From a virus, in IMG/VR virus record IMGVR_UViG_3300035696_000038, positions 5,616-69,615 of that record: a stretch of DNA of 64,000 nt. One strand, written 5' to 3'. A model generated the notes under the pieces. That model had not been told where the DNA came from. It searched no databases and worked only from the letters and a program-made list of their open reading frames with translations. The number at the start of each line of letters is the position of its first letter. Position 1 is the stretch's first letter. Shown here in pieces: positions 4,045 through 48,546 of this stretch. The translations under genes and the position numbers were made by a program.

Positions 4045-4268
4045 CACGACGAGAGGTTTGAGTGCGCCCATCGGGCGCAACTTGGGTTGCTAGGCTTTTG
4101 CTTTGAAAAGATGTTGTCGTGACGAGTTTCGAGTGCATCGCGGAGATGCAACTGTGTGGTATCGCACGTACGCAACTATAAGTGGAAGTCGCAACGGGAT
4201 TCGAGTGCGCCCATCGGGCGCAACACTGAGGCTGAGGCTTTCGAGTTGACCGAAAGCAGCCGCAACGG
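4045..4268 (+). CRISPR. Satellite CRISPR mini-array A (3 divergent 37-bp repeats plus a 5'-half repeat, 3 spacers)
   Basis: Repeats at 4045-4081, 4116-4152 and 4188-4224 end in GAGTGCGCCCATCGGGCGCAAC or GAGTGCATCGCGGAGATGCAAC. Spacers are 34-35 bp. Remnant GCCGCAACGG at 4259. Confidence 0.85.
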
Positions 4269-17568: not shown

Positions 17569-18026
17569 ATGGGAAAGATCAAAATGCCGTGGAATATGGA
17601 CGAAGACAAGCTGCTCTGCCTGATGGCGCTGAACGACGGCGTGGCCCTGAAACTGAGTTCGCAGGCCGGAAAGCATATTGGCGGGGATTTATTTTGGAGA
17701 ACCGCACCACCCGCGCCGTGCACGCCCTGTTCCGGTTCAAATATAAGAACGGCAACCGGAATTGGTTCAGTATGCAACCCAAGCAGAAGGGCGACCGGGA
17801 AACGACGATGCACGCGCTGCGCTGCAGCCTGGAAGACAATATCAAGCTGGCCATGAAAGTTTTTGGCATTCCACCCGAAGTTGCTGCCCAGGCGATTGAA
17901 TGCTTTTATCCGCCTGACGACGAGGGAGATCCTGGAAAGACCGTTATTTGGCTGGAGCAGCGCAACTTGATTGAAATCCATGTACAACCCGAGGAAGCAG
18001 AAGATGATCGAAAAAGTAACCTATGA
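17569..18026 (+). pseudogene. Frameshifted paralog of 52864-53367 immediately upstream of the Cas12 gene
   Basis: The N-part KLLCLMALND..SSQAGK and the C-part AYWRGFILEN...PPDDEGD..WLEQRNLI lie in different frames, switching at GGAAAGCA (~17668-17675). Both align to the intact paralog. Confidence 0.7.
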
Positions 18027-20295
18027 CGGCGCGACCGTGCGCGTCCACCTGGCTTCGATTTCATTGAAGGCAACCAAGGCGTTTACCCACGGCAGCTTCA
18101 TCTTCGACAAAGAGACGCAGCGGCTGACCATGGGCCAACTGGCTCCGGTGCCCATACCAGCCGAGTTGGAGCTGAGCGAAGGCGCACAGCTCAACTTTCA
18201 ACTGGTGGCGCCCGACGGCGCCCTGCGCAAACAAACCCGCTGTGGCGTGCTCAAAGCAAATGAGAAACAACCATCGATCTTGCGTATCGCCGGCATGGCC
18301 AAGACGGCGCGACGCTACCCCGCCGAAGAAGGCTGGCGCAACGAAATCTATAAATACCGCGCCTGCTTTGCCCACGAGGGTCTGAAGACCGACGCCGTGC
18401 TGGGTGAGCCTCTCAACTTGCCCGAATGGCTCAAGGGTTGCGTTGCGCGGCAAAAAGCGCTGTGGAACCGCCTGGCCTGGCTTTGCCGCGATGCGCGGCG
18501 TAAATGCTCCCCGGCGCCGACCGAGGCGATTGCGGAGCTTGTTAAAGGCACGATTTTGCCCATGATCGATGCCTTCAATTTCAACCTTGGCCGCGCCAGA
18601 GCCAAGGAGAAGATGCGCCACCCGGCCAAGCTGAAAGTGGAGATGCCGGGGCTGGACGGAGTTTGGAGCTTTATTGGAGAACTGCGCCATAGAATCGAAA
18701 AGGGCCAAGCCGTGCCGGAAAAACTGCTTGAAGAGGTGGTGGCCTTTGCCGAACAATACAAGGCCGAGTACACGCCAATCAACGAGTTTCTGAACAACTT
18801 TGCCGCCATTGCCGAGAGAGAAGCTAGGGCGCTGGGGCTGCGGCACTTTGAGGTGCGTCCCACCGTGAGCGCCTTCAAAGCCGTGCTGGACCGGCGCAAG
18901 ACCACCAACGCGCCATGGTCGGAGGGTTGGCCCTTGATCAAGTATCCAGACCGGCCAAAAGCCGCCGATTGGGGTGTTTACTTCTACTTCAACAAGGCGG
19001 GCGTGGACGCGAGCCTGCTGGAGACGGGACCCGGCGTGCCCGGCTTGCGCTTTTCGCCGCCGGTACCGCCCGAAAAGACCGGACACAAAGGCATGACGGG
19101 CGCGGCGGCCAAACGCGCGCTGCGCGAAGCGGAAATTTCAATTACCGGAGACGACGGTGAGAAAGGCGAACGATGGTCGCTGCGCTTTGGCGTCCTTCAG
19201 CATCGTCCGCTGCCGCCAAACTCGCACATCAAGGAATGGAAACTCCTGTTTCAGAACGATGCCCTGTGGCTTTGCCTGGTGGTTGAGCTGCAACGGCCCC
19301 CAGCCACACGTACCCCGCAAACGGCTGGCTTGGATATTGGCTGGCGGCGCACGGAAGACGGCATCCGCTTTGGCACCCTGTATGAATCCGCCACCAAGAC
19401 CGTGCGGGAATTGACGCTCGACCTGACACGATCACCCGGAGACCACAAGAACCGCGTGCCCTTCCGGATCGACTTGGGGCCCGATAGCTGGACGCGTACG
19501 GTTTTTGCTCAACTGGAACGCGGCGAGACCGAGAACCCGCGCCGCGGCCCCTGGGACAGCACCGTGCTTTGGCGTGCCTATAAGGACTGGAAGCCGAAGG
19601 ACGGAATCCCCGGCATTTTGGAGATTCGCACCACGCTACAGGCCCGTAACGACTACCTGAAGGAGACCGCCAAGATTTTGCTGCGCAAGCACCTGGGGGA
19701 CAAGACTCCGGCCTGGCTCGAAAAAGCTGGCCGCAGGGGTTTGTTCAAGATGCAGACAGAGTTTTTGGAAGACGCGCGGGTGCAGGAGATTTTGACCCCA
19801 TGGCGCGAAGAAGACGGCAGGATTGCCCGCTTTCTAGCGGTGTTTGCCGCCAACGCAGCCCGGCGCATTGAATACGGCCAAGCGCAAGTGGCGCACGACA
19901 TCTGCCGGTACCTTGTACAGAAAAACGTGAAGGTGCTGGTGGTTGAAAAGAACTTTCTAAGCAAGCTGGCGCAGCACCACGACAACGAAGACCCAGTGAG
20001 CTTGAAGCGCAGCCAGAAGTACCGCCAGTTTGCGGCGGCGGGAAGATTTGTGACCATCGTGAAGAACACGACTGTAAAGTATGGGATCGTGGTTGACGAG
20101 ATCGATGCAGCCAACACCACACGTATGTGCCACTATTGCGATTTTTTGAACCCGTCGACGGAGAAGGAATGCTACAACTGCGGGGGTTGCGGCCGACAAG
20201 TGAAACAGGATGAAAACTCGGGGATCAATCTGGTGCGGTTTGCGGCAGACCCGGAACTGGCAAAGAAAGCGCAGGAGGGGGGACGCGAAGCCTAG
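18004..20295 (+). CDS. cas12: Type V CRISPR effector (TnpB/Cas12 family, Cas12m/V-U1-like), ~763 aa
   Basis: WED/REC start IYKYRA...KALWNRL; RuvC-I TAGLDIGWRRTEDGIRFG; RuvC-II VLVVEK; Zn finger TTRMCHYC...CGGC; RuvC-III QDENSGINL; abuts cas4. Alternative starts at 17971 and 17980. Confidence 0.85.
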   Translation: MIEKVTYDGATVRVHLASISLKATKAFTHGSFIFDKETQRLTMGQLAPVPIPAELELSEGAQLNFQLVAPDGALRKQTRCGVLKANEKQPSILRIAGMAKTARRYPAEEGWRNEIYKYRACFAHEGLKTDAVLGEPLNLPEWLKGCVARQKALWNRLAWLCRDARRKCSPAPTEAIAELVKGTILPMIDAFNFNLGRARAKEKMRHPAKLKVEMPGLDGVWSFIGELRHRIEKGQAVPEKLLEEVVAFAEQYKAEYTPINEFLNNFAAIAEREARALGLRHFEVRPTVSAFKAVLDRRKTTNAPWSEGWPLIKYPDRPKAADWGVYFYFNKAGVDASLLETGPGVPGLRFSPPVPPEKTGHKGMTGAAAKRALREAEISITGDDGEKGERWSLRFGVLQHRPLPPNSHIKEWKLLFQNDALWLCLVVELQRPPATRTPQTAGLDIGWRRTEDGIRFGTLYESATKTVRELTLDLTRSPGDHKNRVPFRIDLGPDSWTRTVFAQLERGETENPRRGPWDSTVLWRAYKDWKPKDGIPGILEIRTTLQARNDYLKETAKILLRKHLGDKTPAWLEKAGRRGLFKMQTEFLEDARVQEILTPWREEDGRIARFLAVFAANAARRIEYGQAQVAHDICRYLVQKNVKVLVVEKNFLSKLAQHHDNEDPVSLKRSQKYRQFAAAGRFVTIVKNTTVKYGIVVDEIDAANTTRMCHYCDFLNPSTEKECYNCGGCGRQVKQDENSGINLVRFAADPELAKKAQEGGREA

Positions 20296-20931
20296 ATGGA
20301 AGAAGATGATTTTGTCTCAATTTCCGCCTTGCAGCACTACAGCTATTGCCCTCGCCAATGCGGTCTGATCCATGCCGAACAGAGCTTTGCGGAGAATGTC
20401 TACACGGCGAGGGGTAATGCGGTTCATCGTAAAGCCGATTTTAGTGGCTATGAGCTGCGAGTTGGACTCCGCATGGAGCGCGCTCTGCCGTTGGCAAGCC
20501 AAAAATTGGGGCTGATTGGAAGAGCCGATATCGTTGAATTCTCTTCAGACAGATCGGCTTATCCGGTGGAATACAAGCACGGACTGCGCCGACAGCAAAA
20601 CCATGACGACATCCAATTGGCCGCTCAAGCTCTATGCCTGGAGGAAATGACAGGTCTCTCCGTACCGTTTGGTGCAATCTATCACGCGAGCAGCCGCCGT
20701 CGGCGCGAGGTGGAAATCACAGACGCACTTCGCGTGGAAGTTGTCGAAACAACACAAGCAATTCGCGTCATGATCCAGACGGGATGGTTGCCGCCGCCCG
20801 CCAATGACGCGCGTTGTCCCCAATGTTCCCTGATCGGTCTTTGCCAGCCACAGGCGCTCGCGGAGCGTTCGAGACGGAGAACTATGCAAACGAATCTCTT
20901 TATTGTGGAGGATGAATGCGGCCCTTATTGA
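20296..20931 (+). CDS. cas4: CRISPR-associated exonuclease Cas4 (I-C-like)
   Basis: ISALQHYSYCPRQ, GRADIVE, PVEYKHG, QLAAQALCLEEM, CPQCSLIGLC. Confidence 0.96.
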   Translation: MEEDDFVSISALQHYSYCPRQCGLIHAEQSFAENVYTARGNAVHRKADFSGYELRVGLRMERALPLASQKLGLIGRADIVEFSSDRSAYPVEYKHGLRRQQNHDDIQLAAQALCLEEMTGLSVPFGAIYHASSRRRREVEITDALRVEVVETTQAIRVMIQTGWLPPPANDARCPQCSLIGLCQPQALAERSRRRTMQTNLFIVEDECGPY

Positions 20932-21956
20932 ACACGCTCTACATTACACTGCGCGGCTACCTGCACCTCGAAAACGACACACTTCGTTTTGAAGTAGAAC
21001 ACGAAACCAAGTTGCGTGTGCCCTTGCATCACCTTGGATGCGTGGTGTGCTTTGGCGATGTAATGGTTTCGCCGGCAGCTATGGCTCGATTGGCGAAAGA
21101 AGGCAAATCGCTTGTCTTTCTCGATATGAATGGCCGTTTTAAGGCGAGGGTTGAAGGGCCGATCAACGGAAATATCCTGCTGCGCAAGGCGCAGTTCGCC
21201 CGTGCGGATTCGCCAGAGTTTGCCTTGGCGCACGCCAAGGCGTGCATTGCTGGGAAGTTGAGAAACAGCCGTTCCGTTTTGCTGCGCAGCGCCCGCAATG
21301 CAGATGAAAGAGAAGATACCGACAACTTGCGAAAGGCCGCAGCTAGCTTGGTTGTAAACTTGCGCTCCTTGGAGAGCGCACTCACGCTCGATGCTGTGCG
21401 TGGATTGGAAGGTGAATCGGCGAGACGCTATTTTTCTGCGTTTGGTTGCATGATCCGCAAAGACCTGCGCGCGCAATTCGCACCCGACGGACGGAGCCGT
21501 CGACCGCCGCGCGACCGAATGAACGCGCTTCTTTCGTTTCTTTACAGCATGTTGGCTAACGATTGCCGCAGCGCGCTTGAAACCGTCGGGCTCGATCCGC
21601 AACTTGGCTATCTGCACGCCGTGCGGCCCGGACGCGCGTCGCTCGCTCTTGACTTGATGGAGGAGTTTCGGGCAATTTTCGCAGATCGCTTGGCAGTGAC
21701 GCTTGTCAATCGCAAACAGATTCAATACGACGATTTTGAAGAACGGCCAGGAGGAGGAATTGAGTTGCGGGAGGCCGCTCGAAAAACGCTTATTTTCGCC
21801 TTCCAAGAACGCAAGAAGGAGATCGCTTACCACCCATTGTTGGACCAAAAACTAGCTCTTGGCTTGCTTCCACAAATTCAGTCCAGATTTCTCACTCGCG
21901 TAATTCGTGGCGAAGCCGAGCACTACCTGCCCTTTTTGGAGGACCGACCGTGCTGA
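20916..21956 (+). CDS. cas1: CRISPR-associated integrase Cas1 (type I-C-like)
   Basis: [64 protein letters not shown]. Confidence 0.97.
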
Positions 21957-22240
21957 TCTTGGTTTGTTACGACGTGGCAACGGATACGCACGACGGCAGA
22001 AACCGGCTGCGCAGAGTGGCTAAAGCCTGCGAGGCGGTTGGACAACGAGTGCAGCGGTCAGTGTTCGAATGCCGAGTGAATCAGATGGAGCGTGAAGAGT
22101 TGGAACGGAATCTTCTGGAAATCATTGATCCGTTGGAGGATTGCCTACGGTTCTACCGCATCACCGAACCCTCTGGTCAGCACGTCAAAGAATACGGTAC
22201 ATTTACAGCCGTGGATTTTGACGGGGTACTCGTAATTTGA
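21950..22240 (+). CDS. cas2: CRISPR-associated endoribonuclease Cas2
   Basis: MLILVCYDV...[21 protein letters not shown]...DCLRFY. Confidence 0.97.
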
Positions 22241-22425
22241 GGCGTGCTGCGCTAACCCCAAGTGAACATGAAAATGCCGGGGGGTTAGTAGGCACGGTAA
22301 CAGCTTGATTTTATGGAGTATAGGCCGTAGTATGAGTTCATTGCGCCTGTTCGAGCCTGTGGAAAAGTCGAGGTTAGCGCAAAATGCCCCTGGCGCGTTG
22401 ACACGAAAGAGCTTTTGGCGGTGGC
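22241..22425 (+). promoter_or_regulatory. CRISPR leader
   Basis: Non-coding gap between cas2 and the first repeat with inverted GCGCTAACC...GGTTAGCGC boxes, as typically seen in I-C-type leaders. Confidence 0.75.
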
Positions 22426-23461
22426 GGCGCAACGCAGTTCCAGTGCACCCCATGGGTGCAACTTATTGGAGGATTCAAGAATCGCCTGGGCGATGGGGCG
22501 CAACGCAGTTCCAGTGCACCCCATGGGTGCAACCGCCGGCCGCCGCATACAGGCTTCTTTACCGCAAGGCGCAACGCAGTTCCAGTGCACCCCATGGGTG
22601 CAACGTCCTGGTCGTACATCTTCCCGCACTTCTCACACGGCGCAACGCAGTTCCAGTGCACCCCATGGGTGCAACTTCTTTTGGTTCCAGCATCATCCTT
22701 CCCGAGCATCGGCGCAACGCAGTTCCAGTGCACCCCATGGGTGCAACGCTGCGCTGGCGGCGTTGTTCACTGGTGTTGACCGGCGCAACGCAGTTCCAGT
22801 GCACCCCATGGGTGCAACTTTGCAACGCTCGCGACTGCGACCGCGCAGACTCGGCGCAACGCAGTTCCAGTGCACCCCATGGGTGCAACTTTGGCATGCT
22901 GTGGACGCATAGCACTTTAGGGCCGAGGCGCAACGCAGTTCCAGTGCACCCCATGGGTGCAACTTTGTGGAATGCCTCGCTGATCTCGAGCGGAAGATGG
23001 CGCAACGCAGTTTCAGTGCACCCCATGGGTGCAACTGGCGTCCGTTTAGCCACTCTTGAAACTCGGAGGCGCAACGCAGTTTCAGTGCACCCCATGGGTG
23101 CAACCTCTTGCTCGACCGCAACAAGCGCGCCGGCACAAGGCGCAACGCAGTTTCAGTGCACCCCATGGGTGCAACTTATGCTGCGCGCACAGCCACTCGA
23201 TGACGCGCTGGCGCAACGCAGTTTCAGTGCACCCCATGGGTGCAACCGTTAGAAGGTGAATATCGAAAATGGACAAAAACGGCGCAACGCAGTTTGAGTG
23301 CATCCTCTGGATGCAACTTTCGACAGCTTGTTTGCTCTCGCCTTCCCGCCGCGGCGCAACGGGATTTGAGTGCATCCTCTGGATGCAACTGTTGTTCAGA
23401 CCGATCTGATGATGATTGTTTCTGGTCGCAACGCAGTTTGAGTGCACCCCCGGTGGGATCT
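22426..23461 (+). CRISPR. Main CRISPR array: 15 repeats of 37 bp and 14 spacers of 32-37 bp
   Basis: Consensus GGCGCAACGCAGTTCCAGTGCACCCCATGGGTGCAAC. R9-12 carry TTTCAG; R13-14 have stem TGCATCC-TCT-GGATGCA; R15 is degenerate. Confidence 0.98.
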
Positions 23462-23974: not shown

Positions 23975-25093
23975 ATGACCGAAGAGATTGAAATGGTGGC
24001 TCACACTACCGCGGACTTTTTTCACTCGCCGGAATTCAAGGAAGCCTACGCGGCGTTTGTTGAGGCTCAGGCGGAATTTACGCCCGTGCCAAAAAACAAA
24101 ACAGCCAAAGTCAAAGGCCGCACGAAAACCGGCACCGATTACGAGTACAGCTACAAGTACGCCGACCTGGCCGACGTGCTGGCCATGGCGTTGCCCGTGC
24201 TGACCCGGCACGGCCTGGGCCTGCTGCAACCAAACCTGATGGTGGATGGAAGGCTGAGAGTGTGTACGCGGCTACTGCACAAATCTGGCCAGTGGCTGCA
24301 ATCCTATGGGCTGATGCTGCCGGAAAACATGGCTCCCCAGGAGTTTGGCAGCATCTCAACCTATTGGCGCCGCTACGACGTGTGCAGCCTGCTGGGCATT
24401 GCCGCCGACGAAGACGTTGACGCGCAGGGAACCGGACAAGGGACCGGACAGAAAACCGGAGAGGGACGCGCCCCAGCGGCCCAGAGCCGCGCAGTGCGCC
24501 AGCCCGCCGCCGCGAATGCGCCAACAGCGCCAACGCTTTCCGCCGGAGAGCAGTTGCTGGCCCGGCGCGACGAGATGGTGGAGAAACTTACCGCGCTCGT
24601 CCCGGACCGGAAAGAACTCGGCCATCGCGCCAAACTGATGTTCCCCGAACACAAGACCACAAAAACCCTGACCGTGATCGATCTTGAAAACCTCTACGAG
24701 ACTCTGCTGCGGGAAAAAGCCGACGAAGAACGCCTCGAAGAACCAAAACTGGCTGCGCCAACGCCCACCAAAGAACCCGCAAAACCAGCACCGGAGCCGC
24801 GGACGGGGTTCCCCGCGGATATTCCGGCCGATGTGGCGGCCATGTTCGACGAAGGAAAACTGACCACCGCGGGGCAGCTACGCGGACGCACCATTGGGAA
24901 AGGCCTGGCGCAGCGGCTGCACAAACTCATCGGCATCCACAAAATCCATACCGAAGAGGAATTGATGGAAGTGTATCTGAAACCGTCGGGACTGGAGCAC
25001 GTTTCAGACTTGCCCTACGACTTGTACGACACGCTGTGCGCCTGGGCCGAGGGAAAGCTCGAAGAAGGTACCTCGGGCGACGGCGCGGAATAA
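23975..25093 (+). CDS. ERF-family single-strand annealing protein
   Basis: YSYKYADLADVL, TRLLHKSGQW, PQEFGSISTYWRRY..GIAADEDVDA. Confidence 0.88.
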   Translation: MTEEIEMVAHTTADFFHSPEFKEAYAAFVEAQAEFTPVPKNKTAKVKGRTKTGTDYEYSYKYADLADVLAMALPVLTRHGLGLLQPNLMVDGRLRVCTRLLHKSGQWLQSYGLMLPENMAPQEFGSISTYWRRYDVCSLLGIAADEDVDAQGTGQGTGQKTGEGRAPAAQSRAVRQPAAANAPTAPTLSAGEQLLARRDEMVEKLTALVPDRKELGHRAKLMFPEHKTTKTLTVIDLENLYETLLREKADEERLEEPKLAAPTPTKEPAKPAPEPRTGFPADIPADVAAMFDEGKLTTAGQLRGRTIGKGLAQRLHKLIGIHKIHTEEELMEVYLKPSGLEHVSDLPYDLYDTLCAWAEGKLEEGTSGDGAE

Positions 25094-28792: not shown

Positions 28793-29011
28793 ATGATCAC
28801 TCACGCCAAGGAGCGGACCTACGAAGGAGTAGCGCGTGCCGCATGGGCCCTGGCGCAGCAGGAGGCCAGCGCCCTGGAGCGGATAGAGCACTTTCTGGAA
28901 AATGGGGATTCTGAAAGTGCGCTCACGGCCATGAAAGACTTCTTCGGTCAGAAAAAACCGAGCGCGAGGGCTCAACTGTATGACACCGAGGAAAGAAAAC
29001 GAGTCGTTTGA
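28793..29011 (+). CDS. Hypothetical protein
   Basis: AGGAG RBS. Confidence 0.55.
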   Translation: MITHAKERTYEGVARAAWALAQQEASALERIEHFLENGDSESALTAMKDFFGQKKPSARAQLYDTEERKRVV

Positions 29012-30716
29012 CCGGATTCCGGTCGTAGCGCTGATTCGCGTCAGCACTGAAGAGCAGGCAACCGAGGACAAGGGCGGCATTCCCGCGCAACAAGATGCCA
29101 TCAAGCGGATCGCCCAACAGCACGACCTGGACATCCGCTGGACCGTTCAAATCGAGGGCGTCAGCGGCGCCGTCGTCATGCAATCGCAGCAAATGAAGGA
29201 AGTTCTGCGCATCGTGCGCGGCGGCGTTTGCAAGGGCATCGTGATGAAGGAAGAATCCCGCCTGATGCGCGCGGAAAACTTTGAAGACTACGCGATCTTG
29301 CAGACGCTTCAACAGCACGGAGTCAAAATCTACTTGGTCGACGGCGTGATGGACCTGAGCAAGGCCGGAGACAAACTGTTCAGCCATATCAAGTTTGCTT
29401 TTGCCGGCTACGAACGGACCATCATCCGCGACCGCATGCTGGGCGGAAAAAAGGCCAAGCGGCGCCGGGGAGAATGGGTCGCCGGCCCAAATTCAGTAGC
29501 CTTTGGCCTGAAGCTGGTTAAGGATGGCAAGATCAACCGCCTGCAGGTGGACGATGCTTCGATTCACAGAGTCCAGCACCTCTTTCAACTCTTCATCAGC
29601 GGCGTAACTTCGTTTGGGAAACTGGCCCGCGAAACCGGCATTTCTTACTATTCCATCCCGTATATCCTGGAAAATGAGATATATGCGGGCGTGCATGTGC
29701 CGCGCAAAACGGTTGATCCGAACCGCAACGTGTACCGCGACGACGGAAGCCTGCGCTACCAGAGGCGCTTGGTTGTCCCGGTGACCGAACGGGAACGTAT
29801 CCAGGTTCTGGATAACCCGCCCATCTCACCAGAGGTCTTTGCCCAGGCCCAGTGGCTTTTGAAACTCAAGCGCGAAATGCGATGGAAGCGGACCCAGGAA
29901 ACGGAGGACCTCTACATCTATCGCGGCTTTCTGCGTTGCGCTGAGTGCGGAATGCGCTTGACCACCGTGAAGTACCTCAACAAGCAAGCCAATAACTTTC
30001 GGGCAGACTACTACGTGTGCAGGGCCGCGCACGGTGCCGCCAGAGCCAATGGAACTTGGCAAATCAAGCCCGCTAGCTGCAAGACCCGGCGGATACGGCG
30101 GGAAGTGCTGGAACCAATGCTGGATGATCTTGTCGTCCGGCGCTTCGCCAACCCGAATTTTTTGCTGGAGCTGATCGAGGCGCACTCGGTCGCCGAAACT
30201 CAGGCTGCGGTGACCAAAACCATCGAGAGACTGCACCTTGAAATCGAAGAGGCTGACAGGGCAATTGAACGCAATCAGGAAATGTACATCCGGGGCAAAA
30301 TTTCCCAAGCCGTCTTCGACAAGAATGACCACAACTTGCAATTGGAAAAACGCACTTCAGAGGTGGAACTGGCCAAGTTGCGCCCCAATGTAGAGCAAAT
30401 CACCCCAGAGATGTGGGTTCCGATTGCGCGACAGTTTCAGCGCTGGCCGAAGGTAGCACCACAGCAGAAGAAAGTGCTGCTCGCAGCCATCGCGCCGATC
30501 TTTATCGTCGGCGGCTACGCAGGGGAGAAGTATCACGATACCGTGGTGAAGGTGAAGGGATGCCACGTCAACTTGACCGGCGAGCATCTGAGTGTTGAAT
30601 CGGACAAATCTGCGGAAGGTGAAGGTTCAGAGGAAGAGGACGTATTGGTTGACATTGGGAGCCGATTGTATTCGGGTCGTGATGTGAACCAATCATCTAT
30701 CTACATTCCTTTCTAA
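28980..30716 (+). CDS. Large serine recombinase (integrase type)
   Basis: ALIRVSTEEQ, EGVSG, SRLMR, recombinase domain (ILENEIYAG), Zn ribbon LRCAECG..YYVC, coiled coil. Confidence 0.92.
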   Translation: MTPRKENESFDRIPVVALIRVSTEEQATEDKGGIPAQQDAIKRIAQQHDLDIRWTVQIEGVSGAVVMQSQQMKEVLRIVRGGVCKGIVMKEESRLMRAENFEDYAILQTLQQHGVKIYLVDGVMDLSKAGDKLFSHIKFAFAGYERTIIRDRMLGGKKAKRRRGEWVAGPNSVAFGLKLVKDGKINRLQVDDASIHRVQHLFQLFISGVTSFGKLARETGISYYSIPYILENEIYAGVHVPRKTVDPNRNVYRDDGSLRYQRRLVVPVTERERIQVLDNPPISPEVFAQAQWLLKLKREMRWKRTQETEDLYIYRGFLRCAECGMRLTTVKYLNKQANNFRADYYVCRAAHGAARANGTWQIKPASCKTRRIRREVLEPMLDDLVVRRFANPNFLLELIEAHSVAETQAAVTKTIERLHLEIEEADRAIERNQEMYIRGKISQAVFDKNDHNLQLEKRTSEVELAKLRPNVEQITPEMWVPIARQFQRWPKVAPQQKKVLLAAIAPIFIVGGYAGEKYHDTVVKVKGCHVNLTGEHLSVESDKSAEGEGSEEEDVLVDIGSRLYSGRDVNQSSIYIPF

Positions 30717-30808: not shown

Positions 30809-32272
30809 TTGCGCGCTTACTACAACGAACTCGACGCCGTGAAAGCCGAGGTTTTGCGCGAAGCAATCAGGGCGGGCGCAATCGCGCCAGGGGACGTAGA
30901 TGAACGCAGCGTCGCCGATGTCGAATCAGCCGACCTTGTGGGATATACCCAGTGCCACTTCTTTGCCGGCGGCGGCTTCTGGTCCCTCGCCCTGCGACAG
31001 GCCGGATGGCCCGACGACCGCGAAGTGTGGACCGGAAGCTGCCCCTGCCCCAGCTTCTCCGCCGCAGGAAAAGGCCAAGGGTTTAGAGACCCTCGTCACC
31101 TCTGGCCTCATTGGGCGCGACTCATCGCCGAGCGCCGCCCTGCAGTCGTCTTTGGAGAGCAGGTTAGTGCCGCGATTGGACACGGCTGGCTCGACCTTGT
31201 TCAGACTGACCTGGAAACACAAAACTACGCCGTTGGGAAGGCGGTACTTGGAGCGTGCAGCGTCGGCGCTCCGCACATCCGCCAAAGACTCTACTTCGTT
31301 GCCACCACCTGCGGTGGGGCCAACCGCAGCTACACCGGCGACGACAGGTTGGCCGACGCCGCAGACCCACGACGACAAACTGCGTGGCAACACGGAAGCC
31401 GACTGCCACTACTCCCCCCACGACCTGAGCAACGCGGCCACGCTGAGCAGTTGGTCGCCACCGACCCAGTGGGACTCCGAGGGCGGTGGCCAAGCGGCGC
31501 AGGCGACGAACCCAGCACGCTCGAACGATCTGGGCGACTTTGCGCTGCTTGCATCGTGGAGCACGCCGAGGAACGAAGACGCGGAATCGGCTGGCATGAG
31601 GCTGGCACGGGGAACAGCGGATACGCTGACGGCGCAGACTTCGCTGGCAGCTTGGGCGACGCCGGCGGAACGGGACTACCGCACCGCCAACCTGAAGAGC
31701 TTCGAAGAGCGCGGCGGCGGCAAGAAGGGCGAGCAACTACCCAACCAAGTGAAGCATCTGGCGGGCTGGCCGACACCGATGGCGGGATCTCCGGCGACCG
31801 AGGACTACAACGAGGCGGGCAACACGGACAGCAGCCGGAAAACGGTGGCGCTGGCGGCGTGGCCGAGCCCCTGCACGCCGAACGGTGGCCGTTCGATGTC
31901 GACGGACCAGATGGACGCGACCGGGAAGACGCTGGACGGCAGGAAGCACACGGCCTCTTTGGAACACGCAGTGAAGTTCGCCGGCCCGGTGCGCTTAACG
32001 GCTTCTGGGCTGGCGCTGACTGGATCGGATGCCGGGATGGAAAGTTCAGGCCAGTGCCAGGGACAACTCAATCCGGCCCACTCGGCTTGGTTAATGGGGA
32101 TTCCGCCGATTTGGGATATTTTCTGCTTCCGGGCGGCCAAGGCTATGCGTTCTCGCCGCTCATCCAAAAAGGAAAAGAAAGAACTGGCAGGCTCAGGCTC
32201 TACGGCGACGCAATCTGCGTGCCCGCCGCGCGGGCGTTCATTGAAGCATTCCTTGAAACCGTCAGCAAATAG
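30809..32272 (+). CDS. DNA cytosine-5 methyltransferase, large subunit
   Basis: HFFAGGG (I), TGSCPCPSFS (IV), FGEQV (VI), VGAPHIRQRLYFV (VIII), RLRLYGDAI (X). Confidence 0.88.
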   Translation: MRAYYNELDAVKAEVLREAIRAGAIAPGDVDERSVADVESADLVGYTQCHFFAGGGFWSLALRQAGWPDDREVWTGSCPCPSFSAAGKGQGFRDPRHLWPHWARLIAERRPAVVFGEQVSAAIGHGWLDLVQTDLETQNYAVGKAVLGACSVGAPHIRQRLYFVATTCGGANRSYTGDDRLADAADPRRQTAWQHGSRLPLLPPRPEQRGHAEQLVATDPVGLRGRWPSGAGDEPSTLERSGRLCAACIVEHAEERRRGIGWHEAGTGNSGYADGADFAGSLGDAGGTGLPHRQPEELRRARRRQEGRATTQPSEASGGLADTDGGISGDRGLQRGGQHGQQPENGGAGGVAEPLHAERWPFDVDGPDGRDREDAGRQEAHGLFGTRSEVRRPGALNGFWAGADWIGCRDGKFRPVPGTTQSGPLGLVNGDSADLGYFLLPGGQGYAFSPLIQKGKERTGRLRLYGDAICVPAARAFIEAFLETVSK

Positions 32273-32276
32273 CTGA
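30900..32276 (+). CDS. Overlapping alternative-frame subunit of the C5 methyltransferase
   Basis: 458-codon +1 frame ORF with repeated W(P/S/A)TP units and motif IX-like GQLNPAHSAWLMGIP, which is absent from the main frame. Confidence 0.7.
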   Translation: MNAASPMSNQPTLWDIPSATSLPAAASGPSPCDRPDGPTTAKCGPEAAPAPASPPQEKAKGLETLVTSGLIGRDSSPSAALQSSLESRLVPRLDTAGSTLFRLTWKHKTTPLGRRYLERAASALRTSAKDSTSLPPPAVGPTAATPATTGWPTPQTHDDKLRGNTEADCHYSPHDLSNAATLSSWSPPTQWDSEGGGQAAQATNPARSNDLGDFALLASWSTPRNEDAESAGMRLARGTADTLTAQTSLAAWATPAERDYRTANLKSFEERGGGKKGEQLPNQVKHLAGWPTPMAGSPATEDYNEAGNTDSSRKTVALAAWPSPCTPNGGRSMSTDQMDATGKTLDGRKHTASLEHAVKFAGPVRLTASGLALTGSDAGMESSGQCQGQLNPAHSAWLMGIPPIWDIFCFRAAKAMRSRRSSKKEKKELAGSGSTATQSACPPRGRSLKHSLKPSANS

Positions 32277-34696: not shown

Positions 34697-34986
34697 AGCG
34701 CCATGAGCAGGCAGAGCCAACCCAGTGCATCTGCGGACACTGGATGACCGAAGAGCGTTTCGACATGTGGATCGACGAGATCAATACGCCGGGTACCTCA
34801 CCGCCGCGCTGGACCTGCCCCACCCCGGGATGCTGCGGCAATGTGCGGGAACTCGAAGCCAAACGGCTGCGCGCGATGCTGAGGCTCACCAACGAAGAAC
34901 TGCAAATTCTGGGGCTGTGGCACTACGCGGACGAAGAAAGCAAACACGCCTTCGGGCGCTTGCTGCACGGGATCTTCCATGTCTGA
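34693..34986 (+). CDS. Hypothetical protein with Cys pairs
   Basis: ATGA overlap; CICG, CPTPGC. Confidence 0.55.
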   Translation: MKRHEQAEPTQCICGHWMTEERFDMWIDEINTPGTSPPRWTCPTPGCCGNVRELEAKRLRAMLRLTNEELQILGLWHYADEESKHAFGRLLHGIFHV

Positions 34987-37720
34987 GTTCCAACCCAACT
35001 TCGACCAGGCTTACGCCTACTTCAGCTACCGGCTGCCGATGGAGCGGCTGGCCAAGCACGACGCGCAAAACGTGCGCTGCCCCTTCCACGGCGATGCGCA
35101 CGCGTCGATGAGCCTGAGCCTGGCCAAGGGAATCTTCAACTGCCATACCTGCGATGCCCACGGCGGAATGCTGGAATTCGAGCGCCGCATGATGGGCACC
35201 GACACCGAAACCGCCTGGGCGGAGATTTACCGCATTACCGGCATGGAGCCGCCAAAGGTAACTCGCAAGTTGGTAAAGGTCTACGACTACGTGGACGTGC
35301 AGGGCAAACTGCTCTACCAGAAACTGCGCTACGAGCCGAAAGACTTTTCTCAGCGCCAGCCAGACGGCAAAAACGGCTGGTGGTACAACCTGAACGGCGT
35401 GAAAAAGGTGCTCTACCGCCTGCCCGAGGTGATTACCGCCAAGTTGGTTGTTTGTTTGGAGGGCGAAAAAGACTGCGACAACCTGAAAGAAGCCATGGAT
35501 GCAGCGGGTCTGAAGGACTGCGCGACGACCACCAGTTTTGATGGTGCCGGGCATTGGAAGGCGGAGTACGCGCCTTACTTTACCGGGCGGCTGGTGATGG
35601 TGATTCCCGACAACGACGCCAAAGGCAAAGCCCACGCCCAGACCGTGGCCGCCAGCGTGAAACCCTATGCCGCCAAGGTGAAGGTGGTGGAGCTGCCGGG
35701 ACTTCCCGAAAAAGGCGACGTGAGCGACTGGCTGGCGCAAGGGCACACGGTGAAGGAACTGATGGCGCTGGTAAAAGCCGCGCCCATCTGGGAGCCGGAA
35801 GCCTGCGACCATGTGCTGCTTGAAGAGATGCGCGACTTTCTGGACCGCGCGCCAGCCGAGATTGAATGGCTGGTGGAAGACTTGATCCCGGTGAAGACGC
35901 GCGGCCTGATGGTGGCAGATCCCAAGGTCGGGAAAGCGAGCCCGCTGGATACGCCGGTATTGACGCCTGACGGCTGGAAGCCCATGGGCAGCATTCGACC
36001 GGGCGATTTGGTCATTGGCAGCAACGGCAGCCCGACGCGCGTCCTTCAGATTCATCCGCAAGGAAAGTTGCCTTGCTACAAAGTAACGATGTCCGATGGC
36101 GTTTGGGTGGAGACGACAGCCGAGCATCTATGGGAAGTAAAAAACGCTAATGCGCGAAAGAGACATCGCGCAGCGAAGAAGGCAACAACGCAGGAAATTG
36201 CAGAGATGCTCGCGAAAGGCAAGAAGAGCGATGCTTACGTACCGCTAGTCAAGCCAGTCGAGTTCAGCGAGCGTGAATATGTGATTAGCCCATACGTGAT
36301 GGGGGTGATCCTGGCCAACGGCGGCATGGCACCGCTTGGTTGCCGGATTACGACGGGCGACCAACCCGTATTGGACCGTGTGGCGCAAGAACTGCCTTTT
36401 GGCGCGGAACTTTCCCACTTGTCGGTTGAAATCACGCACGGAATACGCGCGACTTCGAGAAAGATCGACAACGTGGTGGTGGGCGAGCTGAAGCGGCTGG
36501 GCCTGATTGGTCACAAGTCGACGGAGAAATGGATTCCAGAAGAGTATCTGCATGGCTCCGTGCAGCAGCGTTGGGCATTGTTACAGGGCCTACTGGATAG
36601 CGATGGATGCTTCGAGGCTGGGAAACTGCTGACCTACACCAGCGCAAGCAAGCGTTTGGCTGAAGGCGTGCGAGAGCTTGTGCTCTCTCTCGGCGGAACT
36701 TGCCGCATGAAGCCAAAGCGAACCTTTTACACGAAGAAGGGTTCGCGTGAGCGGCACGAAGCCTCTGGCGCTTACACTCTGGTAGCCAAACTGGAACGGG
36801 AAATGGGAAGCCCTTTCTGGCAGGACCGAAAGCGTGAAGCGTGGGAAAACAGCAGGGTCGGGATGAAAAAGAAGCCGTGCCGAAAAATCAGCGCAGTGGA
36901 GTTTTCGCGCAGCGCAGAAGCTCAGTGCATTACCGTTGACGCCGCAGATGGCTTGTATGTGACAAAAGACTACATCTTGACGCACAACTCGCCGCTGGCA
37001 TTGGACCTGGCGCTGGCGCTGGCATCGCAGTCAAGCTGGCTGGGCCACGTGGTGCCGCGGCGGCGCAGGGTGGCCGTCATCAGCCGCGAAGACTCACCGG
37101 ATGAAACCGCGCGGCGGCTGAAGCTCTTTGCGGCCGGCTCGGCGGCGCGCAGCGAATACAACTGGGGCCAGATTTGGGTGAACACCACGGCGCACTCCGC
37201 GCAACTGCATGTGGACAACCTGGAACAGATGGACGCGCTGATTGGCGAACTGAAGATGGAGCAGTTCGACCTGACCATCTTCGACGTGCTGAACGTGCTG
37301 CACTCCGGCGACGAAAACGACAACACCGTGATGGCCGGAGTGTTGGCGGCGCTCAAACGGGTGCAGACCGAGGCCGGCTGCGGCATCTTGCTGCTGCACC
37401 ACATCTCAAAGGCGCAGTCGACCAACATCTTTCGCGATGCGCGCGGCGCGGGCGCCATCCACGGCTGGCCGGAGTGGGGCGTGGGCCTGACCGTAACGGA
37501 TGAAACCCTGCCCCGCCGGGACTGGGTGCGGCGCACCGAGTTTGAACTGAAGTATGCCTGCCCCGCCGACCCCGTCTACTTCAAGATTGTGGGCGACGAC
37601 ACCGCCCTGCGCATTGAGCTGACCGAGACGCCGGAAAAGCCGGCGGCAAAACAGCGGCGCAAGGTGGAGGAGATTGCAAGCCCCTACGACGGACGCCAGC
37701 GGGCGGCGGGGGAGAACTGA
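34979..37720 (+). CDS. Primase-helicase (CHC2 Zn finger, TOPRIM, RepA/AAA_25-like helicase) with an intein
   Basis: RCPFHGD..FNCHTC; CLEGEKD; IPDND..G; KGDVSDW; P-loop ADPKVGK|S split by the intein; Walker B TIFDVL; LLHH.SK. Confidence 0.92.
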   Translation: MSEFQPNFDQAYAYFSYRLPMERLAKHDAQNVRCPFHGDAHASMSLSLAKGIFNCHTCDAHGGMLEFERRMMGTDTETAWAEIYRITGMEPPKVTRKLVKVYDYVDVQGKLLYQKLRYEPKDFSQRQPDGKNGWWYNLNGVKKVLYRLPEVITAKLVVCLEGEKDCDNLKEAMDAAGLKDCATTTSFDGAGHWKAEYAPYFTGRLVMVIPDNDAKGKAHAQTVAASVKPYAAKVKVVELPGLPEKGDVSDWLAQGHTVKELMALVKAAPIWEPEACDHVLLEEMRDFLDRAPAEIEWLVEDLIPVKTRGLMVADPKVGKASPLDTPVLTPDGWKPMGSIRPGDLVIGSNGSPTRVLQIHPQGKLPCYKVTMSDGVWVETTAEHLWEVKNANARKRHRAAKKATTQEIAEMLAKGKKSDAYVPLVKPVEFSEREYVISPYVMGVILANGGMAPLGCRITTGDQPVLDRVAQELPFGAELSHLSVEITHGIRATSRKIDNVVVGELKRLGLIGHKSTEKWIPEEYLHGSVQQRWALLQGLLDSDGCFEAGKLLTYTSASKRLAEGVRELVLSLGGTCRMKPKRTFYTKKGSRERHEASGAYTLVAKLEREMGSPFWQDRKREAWENSRVGMKKKPCRKISAVEFSRSAEAQCITVDAADGLYVTKDYILTHNSPLALDLALALASQSSWLGHVVPRRRRVAVISREDSPDETARRLKLFAAGSAARSEYNWGQIWVNTTAHSAQLHVDNLEQMDALIGELKMEQFDLTIFDVLNVLHSGDENDNTVMAGVLAALKRVQTEAGCGILLLHHISKAQSTNIFRDARGAGAIHGWPEWGVGLTVTDETLPRRDWVRRTEFELKYACPADPVYFKIVGDDTALRIELTETPEKPAAKQRRKVEEIASPYDGRQRAAGEN
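35936..36988 (+). mobile_element. Class 3 intein with LAGLIDADG homing endonuclease (351 aa)
   Basis: Starts ASPLDTPVLTPDGW; block B TAEHLW; LLQGLLDSDG; block F AQCITV; ends ILTHN|S. Confidence 0.9.
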
Positions 37721-37833: not shown

Positions 37834-38052
37834 ATGAAGGGGTTGAAGATTTTCACGGGCGTGGTGGGAATGTGCATCACCCTGCCGATTTGGTTTTACC
37901 TCATCTACTCGATCTTGTGCGCCATCCACCCAGACAGGCTGGTGTGGTTCCTGTTCTGGGTCTACGTGCCGTTGACGTTCCTGGTTGCCGCCATGCAGAA
38001 GGTCATCGATGCAGGCGAGAAAGACAAGAAGGCAACTGCTGGAGCGAAGTAA
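37834..38052 (+). CDS. Small two-TM membrane protein
   Basis: AAGGAG RBS; two hydrophobic helices. Confidence 0.7.
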   Translation: MKGLKIFTGVVGMCITLPIWFYLIYSILCAIHPDRLVWFLFWVYVPLTFLVAAMQKVIDAGEKDKKATAGAK

Positions 38053-39791
38053 TGTACCAGATTTTACAGGGCGACGTGATTGAGCAACTGCGGACGCTGG
38101 CAGATGCGTCGGTGGACGCTGTTGTGACCGACCCGCCTTACGGACTGGCGTTCATGGGAAAAGAATGGGACGACTTTGGCCGCCAACAAGAATACAAGGA
38201 GCGCGGCGGCTACAACGATGCCGGAATCATCCCGGGCTATGGGCGCGGCGGAACGAGCGAGCAACGCGAAAAATTCCGCCGCACATCGAACAGCTCTTAC
38301 CAGATGTTTTGCGAAGCGTGGACTACCGAATGTTTACGTGTACTGAAGCCGGGTGGCCACCTGCTGGCCTTTGGCGGAAGCCGGACCTACCACCGCCTAG
38401 CGTGCGCTGTTGAGGATGCCGGGTTTGAGATTCGCGACCAGATCATGTGGATCTACGGGAGCGGGTTTCCGAAGTCGCTGGACGTTTCGAAGGCGATTGA
38501 TAAGGCCGCGCGCGGCGTCCCGCAGGGCGGTGCCGACCCGACCAGTCCCCATCACGGCCAATACAAGAGCGGCTGCTCAGAGGAGAACGCGAGTGGGAAA
38601 GGCTTTGGCGCGGGACCGGGGCAGTTCATGAAGGATAGCCGCTCCAAATACGACAGCTCCAATCGCAAACCCGCGCCAAGCACAAGCAAAGGGTTCGGAT
38701 ATGAAAGCAAGGGCAATATCCCAGAATCGCAACCCCTCACCGATGCCGCGAAGCAATGGGATGGATGGGGCACGGCGCTGAAACCGGCACATGAACCCAT
38801 CGTGGTGGCGCGCAAGCCACTGGCAGGAACAGTTGCGGCGAACGTGCTGGAGTATGGCACTGGGGCGCTGAACATCGATGCCTGCCGGATTGGGACAGAT
38901 GGAGGATGTGCTGGTGCTGGTGCTGGTGCTGGCGGAAGAGTCTACGGCAACGGGTTAAACGGACCCTTCGCTCAACCTATCGAAGGCTTGGGCCGCTGGC
39001 CAGCCAACGTGATTCATGACGGCAGCGAGGAAGTAGTGAGCCTGTTCCCAGAGGCACAAACGGGGGATTTCTCTGGCCGTCGCAATGAACCCAAGACGAA
39101 AAACACTTTCAGTTCGTTCCAATTGCGGGACGAAGTTGGACACCGGGGCGACTCGGGCTCCGCGGCGCGGTTTTTCTATGCTGCGCGCAAGGATGAGCCG
39201 AGCGCGGAGCGCACCTACGAAGACAACGGCGGAACCAACTTTGCCATGAAGCCCGGCGCCCGGCGGCTGGACGAAGGCTCGCCTGCGCGCTTCTTCTACT
39301 GCGCCAAAGCAGATAAGGAAGAACGCGAGATCGGCTGCTATGCAGTGAACGCGCAGCCTCTTGCTTACGGAAACCAAGCGCTTGCCGAAGTTAAGCGCGG
39401 CGTGACAGAGAAGCACAGTAACAGCGGGATGAACGCCGTCAAAATGCGCGGAAACACGCATCCAACGGTCAAGCCTCTTGACTTGATGGCTTATCTTTGC
39501 CGGCTGGTGACGCCGCCGGGCGGGACGGTCGTGGATTGCTTTATGGGGTCGGGAAGCACCGGCATCGCCGCGCTGCGCGGCGGCTTCAACTTTATCGGTA
39601 TCGAGAAGAACCCAGAGTATGTGGAAATTGCGCGCCTGCGCCTGGAAGGCGATGCGCCGCTCTTCAACCGCGAAGCCGACAGTGGACAGTGGTCAGTGGA
39701 CAGTGAGCAACCGCTGCTTTTTGCTGAGAACTGCGAACTGACAACTGAGAACTGCGAACTGACAACTGAGAACTGCCCGGAGGACACGTAA
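38052..39791 (+). CDS. DNA amino (N6-A / N4-C) methyltransferase, beta class
   Basis: VVTDPPYG, RVLKPGG, GSGFPKS, HPTVKP, VDCFMGSGSTG; the C-terminus runs through heptamer repeats. Confidence 0.93.
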   Translation: MYQILQGDVIEQLRTLADASVDAVVTDPPYGLAFMGKEWDDFGRQQEYKERGGYNDAGIIPGYGRGGTSEQREKFRRTSNSSYQMFCEAWTTECLRVLKPGGHLLAFGGSRTYHRLACAVEDAGFEIRDQIMWIYGSGFPKSLDVSKAIDKAARGVPQGGADPTSPHHGQYKSGCSEENASGKGFGAGPGQFMKDSRSKYDSSNRKPAPSTSKGFGYESKGNIPESQPLTDAAKQWDGWGTALKPAHEPIVVARKPLAGTVAANVLEYGTGALNIDACRIGTDGGCAGAGAGAGGRVYGNGLNGPFAQPIEGLGRWPANVIHDGSEEVVSLFPEAQTGDFSGRRNEPKTKNTFSSFQLRDEVGHRGDSGSAARFFYAARKDEPSAERTYEDNGGTNFAMKPGARRLDEGSPARFFYCAKADKEEREIGCYAVNAQPLAYGNQALAEVKRGVTEKHSNSGMNAVKMRGNTHPTVKPLDLMAYLCRLVTPPGGTVVDCFMGSGSTGIAALRGGFNFIGIEKNPEYVEIARLRLEGDAPLFNREADSGQWSVDSEQPLLFAENCELTTENCELTTENCPEDT

Positions 39792-45181: not shown

Positions 45182-45218
45182 CTGGAGACGCGGTTTGAGT
45201 GCGCCCGCCGGGCGCAAC
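45182..45218 (+). CRISPR. Solitary CRISPR repeat B
   Basis: CTGGAGACGCGGTTTGAGTGCGCCCGCCGGGCGCAAC has the same 3' hairpin and AAC end as the arrays. Confidence 0.65.
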
Positions 45219-45809: not shown

Positions 45810-45959
45810 CGTCTCTCTGCTCTCTCCAAGCGTTCAAACGCTACCCTAAAATAGCGAAAGCGCTTTGGCTTGTCAAGCAGATAAAATAAATAACAGGCAA
45901 AGCTCAACGACGATAGAGATCAGGCGCTGGCAGCCGGACTGCCGCTGGATAGTCGTGGA

Positions 45960-46280
45960 GTTGCATCCGGGGGATGCACTCAAACTTTATTGCGGCTATA
46001 CTTTCGCGGTATCAGACCATCCGAAAACAGTTGCACCCAATGGGTGCACTTGAACTTCATTGCGGTAAGACGAGATCGTCGGGCCTGTTCAGCGCCTCGG
46101 GGTTGCACTCGGCAGGTGCACTTGAACCTCATTGCGGCAGAGACGACTGCGCTTTGCGACATTCCAGAGCACGTTGCACCCATCAGGTGCACTGAAACTT
46201 CATTGCGACTAACGCAGACCAAAGGGGCTGTTTTGTCCGACTCGTTGCACCCATCAGGTGCACTGAAACATGCTTAGCCG
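45960..46280 (-). CRISPR. Satellite CRISPR array C (5 repeats, 4 internal spacers)
   Basis: Reverse-complement repeats at 45960, 46030, 46102, 46173 and 46244, e.g. GTCGCAATGAAGTTTCAGTGCACCTGATGGGTGCAAC; spacers 33-35 bp. Confidence 0.92.
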
Positions 46281-48241: not shown

Positions 48242-48303
48242 GGCAAAACCCCTTTCAACTTGCGTGGATCATAACAAGGCGGTTTTGCTCAAGTCAACAA
48301 GGC

Positions 48304-48546
48304 GTTGCATCCGGTGGATGCACTGGAACTGCGTTGCGGGGGTCAATGAGGCGTTTTATTCCGGAGGTATCAAAAGTTGCATCCAGAGGATGCACTGGAA
48401 CCTTATCCCGCCAACATGTCGAGAGAAATCCAAAGTTGCACCCGATGGGTGCATTAAAACATTACCGCGAGGGACACCGCCATTGACAAGACGCCATGGC
48501 ATCTCGAAAGTTGCACCCGGTGGGTGCACTCGAACCCGCTCGCCGT
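48304..48546 (-). CRISPR. Satellite CRISPR array D (4 divergent repeats)
   Basis: Reverse-complement repeats at 48304, 48376, 48435 and 48510, e.g. CCCGCAACGCAGTTCCAGTGCATCCACCGGATGCAAC; spacers of 35, 22 and 38 bp. Confidence 0.88.

Follow-up and report, generated by a model that had tools for sequence, protein, structure and literature searches.

Cas12m, the effector of type V-M (V-U1) CRISPR systems, is the model for CRISPR immunity that acts by binding DNA and not by cutting it. The protein comprises approximately 600 amino acids (aa) and starts with the WED domain. In the literature, Cas12m is described as working without spacer acquisition and its loci as being without adaptation genes (PMC10691335, PMC11013384), the V-M lineage as having undergone gradual RuvC inactivation (PMC10691335), and variants with the RuvC triads D-E-D, H-D-D and N-D-D as binding DNA, none of them cutting it (PMC11013384); the protospacer-adjacent motif (PAM) is given as T/C-rich (PMC11013384) or YTN (preprint 10.64898/2026.03.26.714355), and V-M systems as enriched on plasmids and present in some prophages (PMC11656645). 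Here we report on a 64,000-nt stretch of DNA (hereafter the window; bases 5616-69615 of the 69,615-base record IMGVR_UViG_3300035696_000038 in IMG/VR, and all coordinates below refer to it unless stated otherwise), which carries a Cas12m-related effector gene joined to cas4, cas1 and cas2, a leader and a CRISPR array. Taken as a whole, our data suggest, with moderate confidence, that a mobile element here carries a type V CRISPR system which is complete and self-sufficient, with an effector that represents a distinct, larger branch of the V-M lineage, in which a WED-REC-RuvC-zinc finger core stands behind a family-specific N-terminal domain, and that interferes with its targets by binding in the manner of Cas12m.

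A described parallel on a virus is MvCas12m of myxophage MV-1, presented as the first of its kind in the preprint 10.64898/2026.09.14.751636. It is likewise of the Cas12m type, with an adjacent array, a viral genome and a retained D-E-D triad; according to the preprint it comprises 610 aa, cas1, cas2 and cas4 are missing from its locus and its spacers gave no targets, whereas the effector in the window is larger, is joined to adaptation genes and has an array with targets. Our literature search gave no description of this effector family or of a Cas12m-type effector joined to cas4-cas1-cas2, and the supplementary V-U listings (V-U6 to V-U45; PMC10691335, PMC12669027) may include the family. 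What is new here is that two arrays associated with adaptation genes (cas-positive arrays) have spacers with matches in genomes of Terracidiphilus, the host genus, mostly with a 5'-TTY flank, and that for the window these matches lie in genes for a TonB-dependent receptor, a MacB-type ABC ATPase and a divergent effector of the family itself.

Open reading frame (ORF) calling placed the type V effector gene, cas4, cas1, cas2, the leader and a 15-repeat array in a single co-directional operon on the + strand. The effector gene (18004..20295, +; identified as an ORF and by PF07282, profiles and fold) starts with ATG and encodes 763 aa. The reading frame extends upstream to a TTG at 17971 (17971..20295, 774 aa), the ATG at 18004 is the start position in nearly all homologs, and the record of this protein in the protein collection has 771 aa; motif residues below are numbered as in the 774-aa form. 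It is followed by a type I-C-like cas4 (20296..20931, +; Pfam Cas_Cas4 6.5e-23, NCBIfam cas4 127 bits, PADLOC Cas4c 1.2e-75), a cas1 of type I-C (Cas1c; 20916..21956, +; 466 bits on the NCBIfam model TIGR03640, which has its cut-off at 385) and cas2 (21950..22240, +; Pfam CRISPR_Cas2 1.6e-22, PADLOC Cas2c 1.2e-34). The effector stop and the cas4 ATG adjoin with 0 bases between them (20295/20296), cas4 and cas1 overlap by 16 nt and cas1 and cas2 by 7 nt, and all four ORFs are intact and translationally coupled. Downstream are the leader (22241..22425, +; 185 nt, with the motif CGAGGTTAGCG at 22369-22379, conserved in an alignment with two other cas-positive leaders) and the main array (22426..23461, +), in which 14 spacers of 32-37 nt separate 15 repeats of 37 nt.

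The translated effector contains the RuvC-I aspartate D455 in GLDIGWRRTEDG (19333..19335, +), the RuvC-II glutamate E659 in VVEK (19945..19947, +), the CxxC...CxxC zinc finger of the TNB domain with C720, C723, C737 and C740 (CHYC...CGGC; 20128..20190, +) and the RuvC-III aspartate D747 in QDEN (20209..20211, +). Pfam recognised solely the Cas12f1-like TNB zinc-finger domain (PF07282), and NCBIfam gave sub-threshold TnpB-type matches only. The best sequence matches in the PDB were Cas12m proteins (23vu, 4.6e-8; 23vw, 7.3e-8; 8hio, 5.7e-4), followed by TnpB; the PADLOC profile Cas12u1 (V-U1) matched residues 386-759 at 1.1e-23, and a model labelled Cas12f (PDLC01692) scored similarly (4.6e-25). 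An AlphaFold2 model based on an alignment of 41 family members (mean predicted local distance difference test score, pLDDT, 85.8) covers a complete RuvC domain. In a Foldseek search with this model Cas12m (Cas12m2 and GoCas12m) took ranks 1-4 (E 1.2e-18, for 8hhl, to 2e-16) and Cas12f came next (5e-12), and with VIA-align the model matched 8pm4 at Z 19.3 (448 residues, root mean square deviation 6.5) and 8hhl at Z 19.0 (461 residues); the best Cas12f gave Z 16.6, such that the margin in favour of Cas12m is modest. Hence by sequence, profile and predicted fold the effector appears closest to Cas12m of V-M/V-U1 (MmCas12m2 8hhl/8hio, GoCas12m 8pm4, 23vw, UnCas12m4a 23vu), at an identity of only 12-16% in the structural alignment. 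Cas-delta, described in PMC12721324 as proteins of 867-936 aa with an RYR PAM that cut DNA, was considered as effector family and rejected.

Compared with Cas12m, the 763-774-aa effector carries an extra N-terminal domain of approximately 115 aa. Residue 1 of Cas12m aligns at residue 116 of the effector model, and for this reason we regard the first approximately 115 residues as an added domain. This predicted alpha/beta domain (approximately 110 aa from the ATG, 18004..18333, +) precedes the WED strand, where IYKYRA begins at about residue 125, is family-specific, being absent from Cas12m, and was recovered as a conserved part of each of the 32 family members that were aligned. Modelled alone it reached a pLDDT of 82, and the best match among 48,161 PDB chains had a Z of only 4.5, a value that does not establish a new fold. 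A first-pass annotation of the window, made from the sequence without database searches, had described a larger, Cas12m-like effector with an N-terminal extension of approximately 115 aa and a zero-base gap to cas4; the PDB, PADLOC, Foldseek and VIA-align results agree with the former, the structural alignment with the extension and the ORF coordinates with the gap, and the motifs that it quoted (GLDIGWRRTEDG, VVEK, CxxC/CxxC and QDEN) are all present.

The effector belongs to a large family. A word-indexed search gave 112 relatives at E<=1e-100 with 31-65% identity; full-length members mostly have 710-800 aa and nearly all are metagenomic, a few being named as proteins from metagenome-assembled genomes (MAGs) of Terracidiphilus or Acidobacteriaceae. 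In a profile search of 1.84 billion representatives, 69 proteins were found below 1e-30, and the next tiers consisted of 640-730-aa proteins without the N-terminal part and then of 480-620-aa proteins. Three proteins of these two shorter tiers were compared with the PDB: P0198 matched Cas12m 23vw at 2.6e-48, as well as GoCas12m and Cas12m2, P0187 matched Cas12m at 8.8e-15 and P0169 matched UnCas12m4a at 1.2e-7. The nearest proteins outside the family among the 1.84 billion representatives are thus Cas12m, which suggests that the family is a separate, unnamed branch beside or inside the V-M lineage. The RuvC triad was counted over 150 family rows, in a fast and rough alignment with overlapping sources and one mis-extracted 10-aa row (L025). 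D455 corresponds to D in 108 of these rows, to E in 31 and to H in 6; E659 and D747 are each conserved in 134, and the four cysteines in 133-144. The triad is D-E-D in 92 rows and E-E-D in 29, and the remaining 29 have another triad or a gap (including H-Q-D forms, which recall the H-D-D of Cas12m), i.e. non-canonical or gapped in 58 of the 150 (approximately 40%), and the cas-positive relative L010 has E-E-D.

Regarding the adaptation genes, the best PADLOC models are Cas4c, Cas1c and Cas2c, and the window Cas1 is 75-78% identical to its closest relatives, including the type I-C Cas1c of Terracidiphilus as named by NCBI. Type I-C systems use the PAM TTC, which fits the TTC flank at the targets of this array (see below). 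The Cas1 passes the I-C model and the gene order, cas4-cas1-cas2, is the same; unlike in type I-C, the module serves the 37-nt repeats of the effector family and not an I-C-type repeat, and the models for the Cas3 core and Csd2/Cas7c (cas3_core and cas_Csd2) gave 0 matches in the 69.6-kb record, which covers approximately half of the element (no search for Cas5c and Cas8c was made).

We collected 76 related loci, of which metagenomes contributed 63, genomes 7 and IMG/VR 6. These loci have 49 full-length effector genes, of which 35 remained after removal of identical cores and 23 had at least 3 kb of downstream sequence. The cas4-cas1-cas2 module is present in two of these 23 dereplicated loci (L010, with its duplicate L033, and L059) in addition to the window, always between effector and array; the other 21 are without adaptation genes, and in most other loci the array follows directly after the effector. 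Protein tables gave two further candidate effector/Cas1 pairs, P0032/P0274 and P0036/P0342, the partners of which have contigs of equal length. In the effector tree (34 rows) cas-negative genes stand between the three cas-positive ones, and well-supported branches require at least three changes. The Cas1 tree (51 rows) placed the five effector-linked Cas1 in one 10-row group with longer branches, sister to the chromosomal-looking Cas1 with weak support (Shimodaira-Hasegawa-like approximate likelihood ratio test, SH-aLRT, 84). One capture of the module, followed by repeated loss or recombination, would fit these trees best, and several independent captures are a less favoured alternative.

The three cas-positive leaders have blocks in common, including CGAGGTT(A/C)GCG approximately 50 nt before the first repeat, and among 95 loci this motif is present on the array strand in cas-positive ones only (L010/L033, L059 and the window), suggesting that the adaptation module moves together with its own conserved leader motif. 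Two cas-negative loci, L028 (3093-3103) and L029 (6588-6598), which are the closest kin of L010 in the effector tree, also have it, located between effector and array but in inverted orientation; here it resembles a remnant of a module that was lost or rearranged. A separate observation concerns L036, where an array with a type I-C-looking repeat, ending GGATTGAAAC (2419-2727), lies behind an effector gene that hardly differs from the one in L012, which has the family's own repeat at that position. The claim of the first-pass annotation that the adaptation genes are of type I-C agrees with the TIGR03640 score and with the relation to the Cas1c of the host genus; as to its view of the locus as a subtype variant assembled from a captured module, the module and the Cas12m part stand, and a one-off assembly does not, since the effector has 112 relatives of which most are without adaptation genes.

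The repeats of the main array are spaced by 71 nt and fold into a 7-bp hairpin at the 3' end. The 12 leader-proximal repeats have an identical hairpin and the last three, distal ones are degenerate; no two spacers are the same, and their length is uniform. The 21 nt of the repeat that contain the hairpin had 22 matches in the window and 0 in 100 shuffles, and the stem is kept by compensatory changes (C-G to U-A, A-U to G-C) in the window copies and in the family loci. No anti-repeat longer than 10 nt was found outside the array in the 11 kb between 15000 and 26000, in keeping with the earlier remark that the zero-base gap leaves no space there for a trans-activating CRISPR RNA (tracrRNA). As judged from these sequence features, the guide would be of the Cas12a/Cas12m type, with a 5' handle, a 3' spacer and no tracrRNA. 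A search of Rfam gave only a chance match to IRES_HCV (E 0.011, far below the gathering score) and no CRISPR-DR family, and a promoter and terminator scan gave no more matches than in shuffles.

In sum, the locus has in common with V-M loci a GWR-type RuvC-I, the zinc finger, an array that lies downstream of the effector, a repeat with a 3' hairpin, no detected anti-repeat, a T-rich 5' PAM and the location on a mobile element, and the family as such has in common with V-M the erosion of the RuvC triad and that most loci are without adaptation genes; the window and a few relatives differ from V-M in carrying cas4-cas1-cas2 with a leader.

Five further loci in the window have repeats of the same family (4045-4258, +; 45182-45218, +; 45926-46264, -; 48270-48530, -; and 53372-53929, +). 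In these the 5' halves have diverged, the changes in the stem are compensatory and the leader motif is present in none; in peat assemblies, repeats of these satellite arrays cross-link with those of the main array. No spacer variation was seen between two peat runs. A 167-aa protein of unknown family (52864-53367, +) ends at the first repeat of the array at 53372, and a paralog with 33-51% identity, split over two frames, lies directly upstream of the effector (17590-18002, +). Homologs are found just upstream of the effector also in L012, L032 and L072, and this may be an accessory gene.

To identify targets we used 401 genomes of Terracidiphilus, the genus of a MAG with an effector family member. 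The main array gave full-length matches in 70 of the 401 at E<=0.01, and partial matches only in 15 of 301 family-wide genomes. The family-wide matches of spacers 2 and 10 are, according to the genus search, orthologs of the true targets; those of spacers 1 and 11 were not counted, as the same spacer matched unrelated genes (the end of acpS, an outer-membrane ORF and two amidohydrolases); one of these discounted matches (L081) is in the unpublished genome G273. Spacer 2 (22534..22567, +) matches, with a 5'-TTC flank and in more than 30 of the 401 genomes, the gene of a TonB-dependent receptor with CarboxypepD_reg and Plug (PF07715) domains, which adjoins mutS on contigs of up to megabase size. 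In addition, two contigs from two peat runs cover 22533-22565 only, with unlike flanks and TTC before the match, because of which we take this as a protospacer of spacer 2; it is near-perfect (33/34) and derives from the same habitat. Spacer 10 (23105..23138, +) matches an ABC ATPase gene in a MacB/FtsX-type operon (Pfam ABC_tran beside FtsX/MacB_PCD) in approximately 19 genus genomes, with 32/34 nt at best, and spacer 12 (23247..23280, +) matches 31/34 nt of a small Cys-rich ORF in one genus genome, with a TTT flank.

Spacer 3 (22605..22638, +) matches 33/34 nt in the 3' part of the gene of a divergent member of the effector family itself, beside an IS66 transposase, in two genomes; the encoded protein has 63% identity with P0117 and 31% with the window effector (P0001). 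The target of spacer 3, L117 (9390-11744, -, in G366), is a solo effector of 784 aa from the H-Q-D subgroup on a 102-kb chromosomal contig, and no repeat array was found within approximately 4 kb on either side of it.

The sister cas-positive array L059 (21 spacers) matched 22 of the 401 genomes at E<=1e-4, with eight spacers matched, four of them perfectly, and targets including genes for a ParB-like protein, a RepB primase and a GT4 glycosyltransferase; a single control, the cas-negative array L012 (16 spacers), matched 0 of 401 at the same threshold. Using the best match per spacer (n=11), the trinucleotide on the 5' side of the protospacer was TTC in 5 cases, TTT in 3 and CTC, GTC and GAC in 1 each, i.e. 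TTY at 8 of 11 protospacers against a background of 3.1% of the trinucleotides in the target loci (binomial P ~1e-10), and in the orientation needed by a 5'-PAM type V effector. The dinucleotide TT at the start of the spacers was tried as a PAM signal and rejected as not general (7/13 in the window, 1/10 in L010 and 2/21 in L059). No spacer matches were found in the contig itself, in 77 related loci or in the complete relative G306, and in IMG/VR exact 26-mers of spacers 1-3 and a 30-letter flank of the peat protospacer contig both had 0 matches. Finally, a stretch of approximately 108 nt in a host-genus genome (G442:C7:10517-10626) is 70-72% identical to both cas-positive arrays and is probably a related repeat-spacer-repeat.

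As to the genetic context, the IMG/VR record is classed as linear and as viral and is estimated to be 52% complete, which agrees with the earlier description of the locus as element-borne. One half of a 132,674-base record (G306, estimated 99% complete) shows synteny with the window, and several related contigs have 129-133 kb. The window half carries genes for replication, recombination, methylation and integration: an Erf-like annealing protein (Erf-type recombinase; 23975-25093), a serine integrase (28980-30716), several DNA methyltransferases (30900-32276 and 37872-39791) and a primase-helicase (34979-37720). The first, second and last of these flank the CRISPR locus, and IMG/VR flags two relatives of the element as proviruses. 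What the evidence carries is a mobile element classed viral by IMG/VR; we consider it probably a temperate, approximately 130-kb element of peat-soil Terracidiphilus (Acidobacteria). The other half is a side observation: ten ORFs tested in G306 between approximately 60 and 118 kb (loci L092-L094) encode 438-1065 aa, and half of the element family is dark matter.

Based on these data we propose that the CRISPR RNA (crRNA) would consist of a repeat-derived 5' handle ending in the 7-bp hairpin followed by a spacer of approximately 34 nt, and that no tracrRNA would be needed. The cas4-cas1-cas2 genes and the leader would derive from host-type I-C systems and would insert new spacers at the leader end, taken from DNA flanked by 5'-TTC/TTT and oriented with the PAM-proximal end next to the handle, which is the arrangement required by 5'-PAM type V effectors. 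The targets would be DNA resident in genomes of the host genus, comprising mobile-element genes (the rival effector gene for the window, the ParB-like and RepB-primase genes for the sister element) and host envelope and transport genes (the TonB-dependent receptor, the MacB-type ABC ATPase and the glycosyltransferase), and tight, PAM-dependent binding of the effector would block transcription or replication without DNA cleavage, as in Cas12m. A described system that resembles this is the plasmid type IV-A3 (preprint 10.1101/2023.06.23.546257), which is also mobile and non-cutting (a property predicted for the window effector), acts in inter-element conflict and uses type I adaptation machinery; it differs in having a multi-subunit class 1 effector that borrows the host module in trans, whereas here the module is physically joined to a single type V effector.

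Several observations weigh against this reading. The triad of the window effector is fully canonical (D-E-D), and the suggested relationship to Cas12m is a similarity ranking and not a rooted tree with named references. Full-length matches were obtained for only 4 of the 14 main-array spacers, none of them perfect in genomes (33/34 at best), and the ortholog targets of spacer 10 are flanked by GAC and the spacer 3 target by CTC, i.e. not by TTY. A check of 4 target-bearing genomes found the element in 0 of them (setting aside the rival effector gene), and tolerated self-targeting within one cell is therefore no more than a possibility. Moreover, the Pfam models Phage_capsid (PF05065, HK97) and Terminase_6N (PF03237) matched 0 of 5 records, and the ten large ORFs of G306 gave 0 PHROG matches and one sub-threshold match to the Pfam model SU10_adaptor.

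How the host-matching spacers are to be understood is a question on which we are cautious. They might be harmless by-products of the sampling of TTC-flanked DNA, inter-element competition being the only selected role, and we regard this as plausible if short of an even chance: the targets of the sister array, ParB-like and RepB-primase genes, are typical of mobile elements, spacer 3 matches a rival effector gene beside an IS66 transposase, PMC11656645 holds that plasmid V-M systems are thought to serve inter-element competition, and strand or position bias is absent among the few targets. Speaking against it, genes for envelope or transport functions are the targets of two of the four window spacers with matches and of one L059 spacer; this is a class often manipulated by phages, and these numbers are too small for a test. 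A bolder and tentative extension of our proposal, which we think possible though doubtful, is that a temperate element runs adaptive, heritable CRISPR interference on its own host, the captured I-C module sampling TTC-flanked DNA of the host chromosome and of co-resident elements and the non-cutting effector silencing it.

The effector could also be an active RuvC nuclease that cuts rival elements, and perhaps the host chromosome during lytic growth. In favour of this, the window effector retains D455, E659, D747 and the four cysteines of its zinc finger, no triad is more frequent in the family than D-E-D (92/150 rows), the predicted fold has the complete RuvC domain, and own adaptation genes are, according to PMC10691335, typical of nuclease-active type V subtypes such as V-A, V-B and V-E. 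Against it stand the 58 of 150 rows in which the triad is non-canonical or gapped, including that of the cas-positive L010, and the failure of every D-E-D variant of Cas12m tested in PMC11013384 to cut. Furthermore, the correctly flanked spacers match conserved chromosomal genes of the host (on megabase contigs), and cutting would for this reason be lethal for a lysogen, an argument that applies because the element encodes a serine integrase and two relatives are flagged as proviruses. The first-pass description of the effector as possibly cleavage-competent thus finds no support: a D-E-D triad is not predictive in Cas12m, the family triad is frequently disrupted and the spacers match host genes. 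On the grounds of the eroded family triad, the host-matching spacers and the Cas12m precedent we consider silencing by binding to be probable, and cutting rather unlikely.

That the locus is a decaying relic, with an inactive module or effector and a passively inherited array, appears very improbable; the module is rare (2/23 loci) and apparently lost repeatedly, three distal repeats are degenerate and the gene just upstream of the effector is frameshifted, and set against this are four intact, translationally coupled cas ORFs, twelve repeats with an identical hairpin, unique spacers of uniform length, the strong flank bias and a 33/34 protospacer in the same habitat.

These data reveal a large natural family one step from Cas12m, some members of which may have become autonomous through a captured host adaptation module with its leader, and the arrays of which are readable in terms of a TTY PAM, host-genus targets, a rival effector gene and host envelope genes. 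The natural D-E-D, E-E-D and H-Q-D effector variants exist for comparison, and an effector that only binds would provide a tracrRNA-free platform of approximately 760 aa with a TTC PAM. The findings raise the questions of how a non-cutting effector coexists with an active adaptation module that samples the host chromosome, of the role of the added N-terminal domain, and of whether mobile elements use adaptive CRISPR interference to reprogram their hosts. Should an element of this kind indeed silence genes of its own host, silencing of the receptor and the MacB-type transporter could exclude superinfecting phages or toxins, silencing of a rival copy of the same effector would be CRISPR against CRISPR, and the N-terminal domain would serve to adapt the effector to this host-silencing role.

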